Source of the DNA: an uncultured Planctomycetaceae bacterium
Lineage (GTDB): Bacteria; Planctomycetota; Planctomycetia; Planctomycetales; Planctomycetaceae
Direction of reading: 5' to 3'
Length of the DNA stretch: 64,000 nt
NCBI GenBank assembly: GCA_963813715.1
Contig: CAWFAK010000005.1
Location: forward strand, 1,088,001-1,152,000
How positions within the stretch are numbered: the first letter of the stretch is position 1; every line of letters starts with the position of its first letter. The notes below the pieces were generated by a model, which saw nothing but the letters and a program-made list of their open reading frames with translations, had not been told where the DNA came from and searched no databases. The position numbers were made by a program, and so were the translations under genes. Shown piece after piece: positions 13,698 through 15,736 of the stretch.

Positions 13698-14029
13698 GCC
13701 GTTGACCCGTTGAAACGCCCCCCAGAACGACGCTTCGAAGTAATCGCGCACCCTTATGGATAACCAAAACTCCCTGACGACGCAAATAGTTAGAGAGCCC
13801 GCAGCCCCCGGAGATCGCTTGCTTGCGGCGACCCGACTCGGCCCGAATCAAGTCGACTCGACCACCCGCGCGAGGCGACTTCCAGCATCGTGGATCGTCG
13901 ACCACAGGGTCGCCAAATTCGTGGTCAACACGCGCCCGGAGAGCGAAATCGTACGGCGGGCGCAGCAGCGCGACGGGGGGCCGATGCAAAAAAACCTGAA
14001 AAAATAGGGGAAAAGCGTGCGCGCCTTGG

Positions 14030-14058
14030 TTGACAACCGTTTTCCGCGAGAGTTTACT
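14030..14058 (+). promoter_or_regulatory. Putative sigma70 promoter of hup
   Basis: TTGACA-17 bp-TTTACT with upstream A-tracts (13988-14014). Confidence 0.6.
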
Positions 14059-14131
14059 ACGCGAAAACTTTTGTGGAGCGCTCGCAAGGGTTCGGCGTTC
14101 CGGCGACTTTCAAGAATGGCAGGAGTGCACG

Positions 14132-14455
14132 ATGGCAACGAAGAGCGGTGCAAAGCCGATGTCGAAGAGCGAGGTTCTGAACACGCTGGCGCAGGAGAGC
14201 GGGCTCTCGCGAAAGCAGGTGGCCAGCGTGCTCGACGGCCTCTCGGGCCTGATCAGCAAGAACGTGGGTAAGAAGGGCCCCGGCGTCTTCGCAGTCCCCG
14301 GACTGATGAAGATCACCGTGCAGCACAAGCCTGCCACTAAGCCGCGCAAGGGCATCAATCCGTTTACCGGTCAGGAAATGATGTTCAAGGCCAAGCCCGC
14401 GCGGAATGTCGTCCGCATTCGCCCCCTCAAGTCCCTCAAGGACATGGTGAAGTAG
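14132..14455 (+). CDS. hup: HU-family DNA-binding protein
   Basis: MSKSEV...GLSRKQV...RKGINPFTG..M.FKAKPARNVVRIRPLKSLKDMV; AGGAG RBS. Confidence 0.93.
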   Translation: MATKSGAKPMSKSEVLNTLAQESGLSRKQVASVLDGLSGLISKNVGKKGPGVFAVPGLMKITVQHKPATKPRKGINPFTGQEMMFKAKPARNVVRIRPLKSLKDMVK

Positions 14456-14479
14456 CGGCTGGCCGATTCGAATCGGCTC

Positions 14480-14890
14480 TTGTGAAAGCGCGCATCTCTC
14501 GACGCTGGAGCTCGGCGGGTACTGTCTGCACCCGGTTCTCACTGGGGTTAGACAAACCGTTGGGTGAGACAAAACCGAGTGTCGAACTGATCATTCCAGA
14601 TTCCGTCCCGTGGCGGCTGGCGAAAGGGGGAAAGTGCCTTTCGCCGCCGGTCCGCCCGTAGGGCTGGATTCGGTCGGCAAACGGCGCCAATGGGGTGCTG
14701 TGCAACGTCCATCGGCGAGCACTCTTTCCGCGCGCAAGCGGGGCAGAGATTGTCTGTGCGCCCCCGGGTCCGGGTCCCCAAGAGGGGCGTTGGTTAGAGC
14801 CTGTCTAGGTGGCGACAATCGCTTGGTTTTCGCTCGGCAGGCAGTTGCTGCGGTTGCCTCGAGCGGTCGCTCGCCGACCAGCCCGGTTTT
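14480..14890 (+). ncRNA. Candidate large structured non-coding RNA of unknown family
   Basis: Nested multibranch stems with G-U pairs that work only on the + strand and A-rich loops; no credible ORF. Confidence 0.5.
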
Positions 14891-15017
14891 TGTCGCACAA
14901 TAAGTCGCTTTGCCCTATGGGTTTAAGGGGGAGGATTCGCCCCTCGCTCGAGCAGCATCCGCCTGCTCATGGCGACGAAAGTCATTAGCCCGCAATGCAC
15001 TTCTCATTTCCGATTGC

Positions 15018-15047
15018 TTGATTTCGCCGCGCGGCGGGGCATACAAT
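15018..15047 (+). promoter_or_regulatory. Putative sigma70 promoter of csrA
   Basis: TTGATT-18 bp-TACAAT about 150 bp upstream of the csrA ATG. Confidence 0.55.
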
Positions 15048-15196
15048 CCCGGTACCGCGAGAGAGCGCCTGAACGTTTTGGAGCCTTGGGCTCGTGGAGG
15101 GTGCTCCCGCCGGCAGGATTGGCGGTGCGCAATCGTTTATGCGAGGAAGGGTCCTCGCGGCACGACACCGGCAACACCTGGGGAGAGCTGCGTGTC

Positions 15197-15409
15197 ATGC
15201 TGGTCCTGTCGCGCAAGAAAAACGAGAGCATCGTAATCGACGAGCACATCGTCATTACGATCGTCGAGATCCGTGGTGACAAAGTCCGCCTGGGGATCGA
15301 AGCACCGAAGGAAGTCCCGGTTCACCGCGCCGAAGTTCACGCGGCGATCCACGCGGAACAGAACTCGGGGAAGCAGGATCCTCCCAAAGTGGCGAGCACG
15401 GAAGGCTAA
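15197..15409 (+). CDS. csrA: Carbon storage regulator CsrA
   Basis: MLVLSRKKNESIVI...VRLGIEAPKEVPVHRAEV. Confidence 0.97.
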   Translation: MLVLSRKKNESIVIDEHIVITIVEIRGDKVRLGIEAPKEVPVHRAEVHAAIHAEQNSGKQDPPKVASTEG

Positions 15410-15618
15410 CCACCCGGCGTCCTCGTTTGACGGAAGTGGTTCGTCCGGATCAATTAGCGGGCTAAGCATCGAGGTGCTTGGCCCGTTTTCGTTTCCGCGT
15501 CCGGTCGCCACAAAGGAATGGTCAGCGACTGTTGGCGATTCAATCCGCGAGACGTGCCCGTTTCGGTCCCCCCCTTCCTTCCACCTAACTTTGCCAGTGC
15601 CCTTTCCCTTCGAGCCGG

Positions 15619-15646
15619 TTGACAAACAGGACTCAGCCCGTAAATT
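15619..15646 (+). promoter_or_regulatory. Promoter of tRNA-Glu
   Basis: TTGACA-16 bp-TAAATT followed by a GC-rich discriminator. Confidence 0.7.
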
Positions 15647-15661
15647 GTGGGGCGGCCACAC

Positions 15662-15736
15662 GGCCCCATCGTCTAGCCCGGTCTAGGACATCGGATTTTC
15701 GATCCGATAACGGGGGTTCAAATCCCCCTGGGGTCA
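15662..15736 (+). tRNA. tRNA-Glu (anticodon TTC), CCA not encoded
   Basis: Acceptor stem GGCCCCA/TGGGGTC, anticodon arm TCGGA-TTTTCGA-TCCGA, T arm GGGGG-TTCAAAT-CCCCC. Confidence 0.95.

Follow-up and report, generated by a model that had tools for sequence, protein, structure and literature searches.

The spacer between hup and csrA in a soil planctomycete reads best as a variable 3′ untranslated region with two stable hairpins

Introduction

Is there a new structured RNA in the long gap that follows hup, the HU gene, in a soil planctomycete? The window analysed here, a stretch of 64,000 nt, comes from an uncultured soil member of the Planctomycetaceae whose genome spans 7.49 Mb over 18 contigs. 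In it, hup, encoding an HU-family DNA-binding protein (14132-14455, + strand; 107 aa including the stop; PF00216, E 6.6e-17), is followed on the same strand by csrA (15197-15409; 70 aa including the stop; PF02599, E 4.9e-25), and 741 nt lie between them. A sequence-only reading had singled out 14480-14890 as a candidate large multi-domain structured noncoding RNA, a chain of multibranch domains read from the + strand and possibly co-transcribed with hup. All 11 helix pairs named in its support do occur in the DNA at their positions.

Such a place may also be occupied by something more ordinary. The review PMC7821165 describes a widespread pattern in bacterial 3′ untranslated regions (3′UTRs): between congeners, conservation ends at the stop codon, and what follows differs in sequence and length. 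One of its examples is the HU gene of B. subtilis, hbs, whose functional 3′UTR is not conserved in close relatives and, according to Braun et al. (2017, as cited there), confers protection from RNase Y through a 14-nt pairing with the 5′UTR.

Results

Content of the gap

The gap lacks a credible ORF, as had been proposed. None of its six ORFs (59-97 aa) matches Pfam at E<=1, and the indels that separate it from the sister species (G002) and from RNA contigs are mostly of 1-2 nt and mostly not multiples of three, so a coding reading was rejected. The flagged stretch (14480-14890) also belongs to no known family, again as proposed. With Rfam 15 at gathering thresholds, the sole match in the whole window is a tRNA (15662-15736). 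When 14350-15300 was scanned permissively, the top match (E 0.23) fell in the csrA leader; within 14480-14890 only P36 came up, on the - strand, and its 13.9 bits compare with a gathering score of 36. Among the families described in Rfam (RNase P, tmRNA, SRP, 6S, riboswitches, sRNAs) the stretch found no place. A literature search, far from exhaustive, returned no description of an RNA at the hup-csrA gap. In the 7.49-Mb genome, blastn with a word size of 9 found no second copy of 14456-14975 (next-best E 0.13), and a separate search of the own genome gave one match. Being single-copy, the stretch is no repeat or mobile element (REP, MITE), and that reading was rejected as well.

The G+C content of the flagged stretch is 0.633 (0.639 in the window), and its + strand is rich in G and T (G 142, C 118, T 87, A 64). 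Directly past the hup stop, at 14461-14478 on the + strand, lies a small 7-bp hairpin followed by a weakly U-rich run. This is a possible weak terminator; the fold of 14456-14500 is not above chance (z 0.05), and RNA contigs pass through it.

Transcription

Parts of 14100-15450 (1351 nt, including hup and csrA) are contained in 19 RNA runs from 16 studies of soil and rhizosphere metatranscriptomes. The four runs that were examined, from four studies, all have contigs that bridge the hup stop at 14455. The X1 contigs cover <=13900-14591 (record 1) and 14583-14941 (record 2), those of X2 cover 14139-14851 (record 8) and 14852-15600 (record 9), and single contigs were found in X3 (record 12, 14122-14716) and X7 (record 20, 14426-14631). 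Because contigs from RNA libraries run from hup into the flagged stretch, the stretch is transcribed together with hup, contiguously and as the sequence-only reading had supposed, within what such contigs can say: they give neither ends, strand, single molecules nor reliable levels, and DNA carry-over in the libraries is uncontrolled. Contig depth, a weak measure, is no higher over the region than over hup when the two are compared within a contig or between adjoining ones (6.6 then 3.4 in X1). The promoter scan found no sigma-70-like site on the + strand of 14456-15017 and no promoter-like site on the - strand.

Contigs stop at 14716 in X3 and at 14631 in X7, and X1 has a gap at 14942-14974; these positions differ, and no transcript end is read from them, as contigs do not reveal ends. 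The A-run at 14551-14553 is one A longer in all four RNA runs and in G002 than in the window, which may reflect either a strain difference at 14553 or a homopolymer error in the window's assembly.

Folding of the stretch and of its parts

Folding energies were compared with those of dinucleotide shuffles. On the + strand the flagged stretch has a minimum free energy (MFE) of -186.3 kcal/mol, against -177.4 +/- 5.9 in shuffles (z -1.51; 7 of 100 shuffles as good), so that on the very comparison of folding energies proposed for it the stretch as a whole does no better than shuffled sequence. This value is ordinary. In 17 other 411-nt windows, taken on both strands (34 values), z averages -0.21 (sd 1.15, minimum -3.1), and 12% of values lie at or below -1.5. 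The + strand shuffles also fold well because the stretch is G- and T-rich on that strand. On the - strand the MFE is -171.8 against a shuffle mean of -151.7 (z -3.51; none of 100 shuffles as good), and 14456-14970 reaches z -3.82. Since -3.51 is below the background minimum, the DNA has an excess of Watson-Crick self-complementarity.

The stretch was then divided into pieces whose boundaries follow the helices of the earlier proposal, and the z-scores of the pieces are flattered (biased downward) for that reason. Hairpin 1 (14497-14587, + strand), the former domain 1, is long, unbranched and irregular, with 33 pairs in the MFE structure. It folds at -40.2 kcal/mol (z -3.76; 0 of 200 shuffles as good) and at -30.7 on the - strand (z -2.16). 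The best fold that keeps the proposed branched helices reaches -31.7 kcal/mol and shares only the basal stem with the unbranched one, which does not bear out a multibranch domain here. Hairpin 2 (14593-14670, + strand), the former domain 2, has an outer 5-bp stem and a perfect 9-bp stem extending to about 13 bp, and folds at -37.8 kcal/mol (z -2.20; 2 of 200 shuffles as good). Two of the helices proposed within it, GGGC 14661-14664 and CTGGA 14664-14668, share base 14664. One GGA lies in its loop (14629).

Neither hairpin is directly followed by the U-tract of an intrinsic terminator. The only terminator-like sites within the flagged stretch are at 14805-14826 and 14811-14823, and a scan of 1.9 kb gave five such sites where 2.3 were expected.

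The remainder, 14671-14895 on the + strand, includes small hairpins, 'domain 3' and a T-run (14886-14890), evolves fast and shows no sign of constraint. Its + strand folds are those of ordinary sequence: -28.6 kcal/mol for 14671-14745 (z +0.15; 103 of 200 shuffles as good), -30.2 for domain 3 at 14746-14822 (z -1.04; 30 of 200) and -22.9 for 14823-14895 (z +0.69; 152 of 200). On the - strand domain 3 has z -2.19. As modelled here, the structure is that of two consecutive long hairpins followed by unremarkable sequence, and not of a chain of multibranch domains.

Comparison with the sister species

Over 20 kb our genome (G000) and G002 are 93.8% identical. The segment 14456-14968 is 89.3% identical, at the low end of noncoding-like segments as delimited by crude gene calls, and noncoding-like DNA nearby, delimited in the same crude way, ranges from 89 to 95% (with a 98.2% block upstream of hup). 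Hairpin 1, at 92.3%, is no better conserved than such nearby DNA, which counts against a role in cis. Hairpin 2 is 98.7% identical; its one difference in 78 nt, an indel, compares with about 6 expected at the local noncoding rate. Identity is lowest in the remainder (70.7% for 14671-14745, 83.1% for domain 3, 86.3% for the tail). It is 97.4% in the A/T-richer block that follows (14896-14970, + strand), which is partly alignable in five congeners, and 98.7% over 14972-15196.

Several of the helices proposed for the remainder do not survive this comparison. G002 lacks 27 nt (14726-14752), and with them the CCGC/GCGG hairpin and the greater part of the 5′ arm in the closing stem of domain 3, whose 3′ arm is mutated at 14818 and shortened at 14820-14822; the T-run at 14886-14890 is interrupted too. 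Environmental RNA variants carry an added C after 14734, 14750 and 14760 and lack base 14754. The domain 3 stem is broken in these variants because the 5′-side indels come with no listed change in the 3′ arm (14814-14820).

Across the stretch, no pair has changed on both sides between G000 and G002, a comparison of low power with only two sequences. Five substitutions keep an MFE pair, and five substitutions or shifted bases break one. At two positions A is replaced by G opposite U (14585 in X2; 14721 in X2 and G002), which keeps a G-U pair on the + strand only; these two changes may lend weak support to an RNA on the + strand, and to nothing beyond that.

Upstream of the gap, the ORF that holds hup (14030-14455) is 99.8% identical in nucleotides between the two species, its 14118-14317 bin is 100% identical, and the preceding 13752-14029 is 98.2% identical. 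Judged from these sequences, 13752-14455 appears to be under unusually strong constraint, synonymous sites included.

Conservation in the genus and beyond

We searched 41 genomes by BLAST: our own, 11 congeners and 29 of other genera. The full spacer was found in one of the 11 congeners only, G002, at 92% identity. Five congeners (G006, G010, G009, G003, G007) match only at 14974-15200 (74-78%), four (G005, G011, G004, G008) match only over the final 35-61 nt upstream of csrA, and no match was found in G001 (65% complete) or in any of the 29 genomes of other genera. Nine of the ten matching congeners have hup and csrA together at a single locus; G010 is the tenth, with a contig that begins inside the spacer. 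Across the genus the spacer measures 471-741 nt, and the HU protein is 85-100% identical. In a MAFFT alignment similarity collapses directly past the hup stop (TAG) and resumes at 14974, and the flagged sequence cannot be aligned in the eight other congeners.

Covariance models of hairpin 1 (R1) and hairpin 2 (R2) lead to the same picture. Among the 12 genus genomes, strong matches occur only in G000 and G002, and with filters off, G002 alone matches among ten genus loci. R2 also has three weak matches elsewhere in the G000, G011 and G002 genomes (E 0.001-0.009, 25-28 bits), with the look of generic hairpins. Weak R2 matches of this strength (on G000 contig 17, in G011 and in G067; 25-28 bits) were considered as paralogues of hairpin 2 and rejected: they are G+C hairpins of a generic kind, in which many pairs do not match. 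In 60 other genera of the family R1 has no match and R2 one at chance level (E 0.009). Neither model matches at E<=0.1 in 80 metagenome loci of HU relatives, four of which encode an HU 85-98% identical. At 51 of these 80 loci more than 900 nt were available downstream of hup, and hup is followed by csrA on the same strand in seven (gaps 229-638 nt); this gene order is confined to close relatives and a few others.

A remnant of hairpin 1 was considered in G007, where two short words match the two arms of the hairpin 1 basal stem and lie about 25 nt apart instead of about 75. It was rejected as too weak, given an R1 score of only 7.5 bits (E 6.7) and a fold of the segment at z +0.51.

A large multi-domain RNA of the kind proposed is therefore not supported: only G002 shares the sequence, no pair shows double-sided change, and neither domain 3 nor the CCGC/GCGG hairpin survives intact in G002 or in the environmental RNA variants. 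Other relatives that have the locus keep neither its sequence nor its structure, contrary to what a conserved noncoding RNA would lead one to expect. Related hup 3′ regions had been suggested as the place to look for conservation, and there the hairpin models match two of the 12 genus genomes. In two of the three respects named beforehand as speaking against the proposal, the outcome was the adverse one, namely no conservation or covariation and, for the whole stretch on the + strand, folding no better than in shuffles.

Hairpins behind hup in other congeners

In most congeners the variable part behind hup folds on the + strand at z -0.4 to -2.0, the exception being G008 (-3.8). When 90-nt windows were slid along ten genus sequences, a strong hairpin appeared within about 130 nt past hup in five, representing three of about six lineages, and the sequences of these hairpins are unrelated. 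The window z-scores are -3.3 and -2.8 in G000/G002, -7.0 in G008, and -5.0 and -3.4 in G004/G005. In the other five (G009, G006, G003, G007, G011) no hairpin in the first 130 nt rises above chance. That strong hairpins recur behind hup without any relation in sequence suggests that a hairpin is selected for and its sequence is not, and the lack of one in half of the sequences means that a hairpin is not universally needed.

The hairpin of G008 (L011 2060-2185, - strand) is long and imperfect, occupies nt 40-125 past the hup stop and folds at -63.0 kcal/mol (z -6.84, matched by 0 of 200 shuffles). It is unrelated to the hairpins of the window and is preceded by a 9-bp hairpin. G004 and G005 have in common an 8-9-bp G+C hairpin at the equivalent place past hup.

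The csrA promoter and leader

The part of the gap that is conserved across the genus is 14971-15196. It opens with a palindrome (14971-14986, strand not assigned), whose core, 14974-14983, does not vary among the 10 aligned genus sequences and is where BLAST similarity to congeners begins. Lying about 30 nt upstream of the -35 box, the palindrome is, from its sequence, a candidate operator or small hairpin. The promoter scan places a sigma-70-like csrA promoter at 15018-15047 on the + strand (TTGATT, 18 nt, TACAAT), with hexamers largely conserved across the genus. It is followed by a conserved csrA 5′ leader of about 145 nt (15054-15196, + strand), 74-78% identical in five more distant congeners.

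For the conserved part of the gap, RNAalifold with 11 sequences predicts 31 pairs, six with double-sided changes, and four of the sequences showing such changes form one clade. A predicted invariant helix joins 15170-15176 to the region of the csrA start codon. GGA is not enriched in the leader (5 against 4.0 expected), and autoregulation by CsrA through GGA sites of the leader is only an idea.

The csrA RNA contigs of X3 and X7, from two studies, both start at 15076, and that of X1 starts upstream, at 14975. Just ahead of 15076 the X7 contig has a 24-letter loose end, which we take to be the end of an Illumina adapter. The common start hints that many fragments begin at 15076. This position is 29 nt downstream of the -10 box and may for that reason be a processing site rather than a transcription start. 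Beyond csrA are a terminator-like 14-bp hairpin with a T-rich tail (15456-15487) and, 3′ of it, a promoter-like TTGACA-16-TAAATT (15619-15646) followed by tRNA-Glu (anticodon ttc) at 15662-15736.

Discussion

The flagged stretch is best read as an ordinary variable 3′ untranslated region and not as a new large structured RNA, with a neutral spacer as the main rival. With a coding sequence that is conserved, similarity that ends at the stop, and variation in length and sequence beyond it, the locus follows the pattern described in the review PMC7821165, and we therefore read 14456-14970 as the 3′UTR of the hup mRNA or the intercistronic spacer between hup and csrA. That it is this, with two hairpins acting in cis, is a proposition we regard as evenly balanced between right and wrong. 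In this scenario, 14456-14970 would be transcribed from the + strand with hup as its 3′UTR and would partly run on as the hup-csrA spacer. The hairpins at 14497-14587 and 14593-14670 could serve as cis barriers to 3′-to-5′ exonucleases, as termination or pause structures poor in U-tracts, or as both, and would set the stability of the hup mRNA and limit read-through into csrA, which would be served by its own conserved promoter. The remainder, 14671-14895, would be unconstrained spacer; 14456-14970 as a whole turns over fast by indels and is specific to this species and its sister G002.

Transcription contiguous with hup, the excess stability of the two hairpins and the lack of conservation are observations; the role of the hairpins as a stabiliser or terminator in cis is what we infer from them. 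It is consistent with such a role that only the two hup-proximal hairpins exceed shuffles, and it counts against it that no canonical intrinsic terminator lies past either. As in the long species-specific 3′UTRs of Menendez-Gil et al. (2020), as summarised in PMC7821165, the coding sequence is conserved and similarity is lost at about the stop, the region exceeds 100 nt, congeners differ in its sequence and length, and close relatives differ by local indels. Two features of this class are found here, a transcript shared with the coding sequence (in four of four runs, within the limits of contigs) and loss of conservation at the stop. Unlike the examples in that review, the present one comes from an uncultured planctomycete and has a downstream gene on the same strand with its own promoter.

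The hbs 3′UTR of B. subtilis, as PMC7821165 describes it, is likewise attached to an HU-family mRNA and not conserved in close relatives, though homology between the two regions is not to be expected. Unlike hbs, the ten genus sequences show no excess complementarity between the 5′UTR and the 3′ region. In a duplexfold comparison of 84 nt around the hup start with the variable 3′ part, no pairing of the hbs type stood out (z +0.73 in our genome, -0.40 to +1.30 in the genus), although this crude test could miss a short interaction of 14 nt. Intrinsic terminators and 3′ stabiliser stem-loops offer another comparison, as G+C-rich hairpins soon past a highly conserved and presumably highly expressed gene, which reappear in this position in several lineages although their sequences are unrelated. 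The hairpins here differ from canonical terminators in having no U-tract, in their much longer and more irregular stems, and in RNA contigs that continue past them.

The main rival is that the region is a neutral transcribed spacer, whose hairpins are by-products of a G+C-rich, G/U-rich sequence and of turnover by indels. We consider this a real but somewhat doubtful possibility. A spacer of this kind would account for a + strand z of the whole stretch that 12% of the 34 background values equal or surpass, for an identity to G002 at the low end of noncoding-like segments (89.3% over 14456-14968), and for the 27-nt deletion and many 1-3-nt indels without double-sided pair changes. It would also fit a sequence that is unalignable in eight other congeners and the modest folding (z -0.4 to -2.0) of the variable part in most of them. 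It fits less well with hairpin 1 beating 200 of 200 shuffles and hairpin 2 beating 198 of 200, with a - strand z (-3.51) below the background minimum of -3.1, with one difference where about six are expected in the 78 nt of hairpin 2, and with the very strong unrelated hairpins that recur behind hup in other lineages. No test made here separates a cis role of the hairpins from a neutral spacer.

A young, species-specific sRNA acting in trans, derived from the 3′UTR or independent of it (hairpins 1 and 2, about 175 nt) and binding, for instance, HU or another protein, is unlikely. In its favour, the stretch is transcribed and present in many soil metatranscriptomes, its two + strand hairpins are stable and their loops rich in A, and sRNAs derived from 3′UTRs are an established class, as tabulated in PMC7821165. 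Such an RNA is hard to reconcile with a contig depth that does not rise above that of hup (6.6 then 3.4 in X1, a weak measure), with the lack of a promoter-like site ahead of it and of an Rfam match, and with its absence from nine of the 11 other genus genomes, in eight of which the locus includes hup and encodes an HU 85-99% identical. The last point argues against HU as the partner, since a partner that conserved would be expected to keep its RNA; for an HU-bound nucleoid RNA only the position beside hup speaks. We give a similarly low probability to the idea that hairpins 1 and 2 (14497-14670) form a recently born, species-specific module of the hup transcript, either a stable RNA derived from the 3′UTR or an HU-binding autoregulatory platform. 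If that were true, G008 and G004/G005, with their unrelated strong hairpins past hup, would have arrived at this function independently.

A functional RNA or a DNA-level element on the - strand is very improbable. The earlier claim that the RNA is read from the + strand stands in part: hairpin 1 folds better on the + strand, and the whole-stretch z is better on the - strand (-3.51 against -1.51, with -3.82 for 14456-14970), as is that of domain 3 (-2.19 against -1.04). The better - strand z arises because C/A-rich shuffles fold poorly (mean -151.7 against -177.4), the absolute MFE is weaker there (-171.8 against -186.3), and the - strand has no promoter-like site. As a DNA element, the stretch would be a single-copy one, with no other match below E 0.1 in the 7.49-Mb genome. 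A CsrA-titrating decoy like CsrB or RsmZ, for which only the neighbourhood of csrA and the GGA in the loop of hairpin 2 (14629) speak, is scarcely credible and was rejected, because GGA is depleted in the stretch (3 in 411 nt against 6.9 +/- 2.0 in shuffles, 497 of 500 of which have at least as many), A(N)GGA is missing (0 against 2.2 expected), and there is neither an Rfam match nor co-conservation with csrA in the genus.

From the perspective of RNA discovery, the negative result is useful. In a spacer of 63% G+C that is rich in G and U, helices that look like a convincing chain are mostly what one would get by chance, and there is no case for pursuing the candidate 'large planctomycete ncRNA' further. 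For the regulation of the Csr system in Planctomycetota, the csrA promoter and leader are the better target. What remains of value in the stretch is an example, from a little-studied phylum, of a conserved and probably highly expressed nucleoid-protein gene with a long, fast-changing 3′UTR that differs between species. The strong unrelated hairpins behind hup in three lineages hint at selection on structure there, and proof that the hairpins control HU levels or insulate csrA would make them a small addition to the biology of 3′UTRs.
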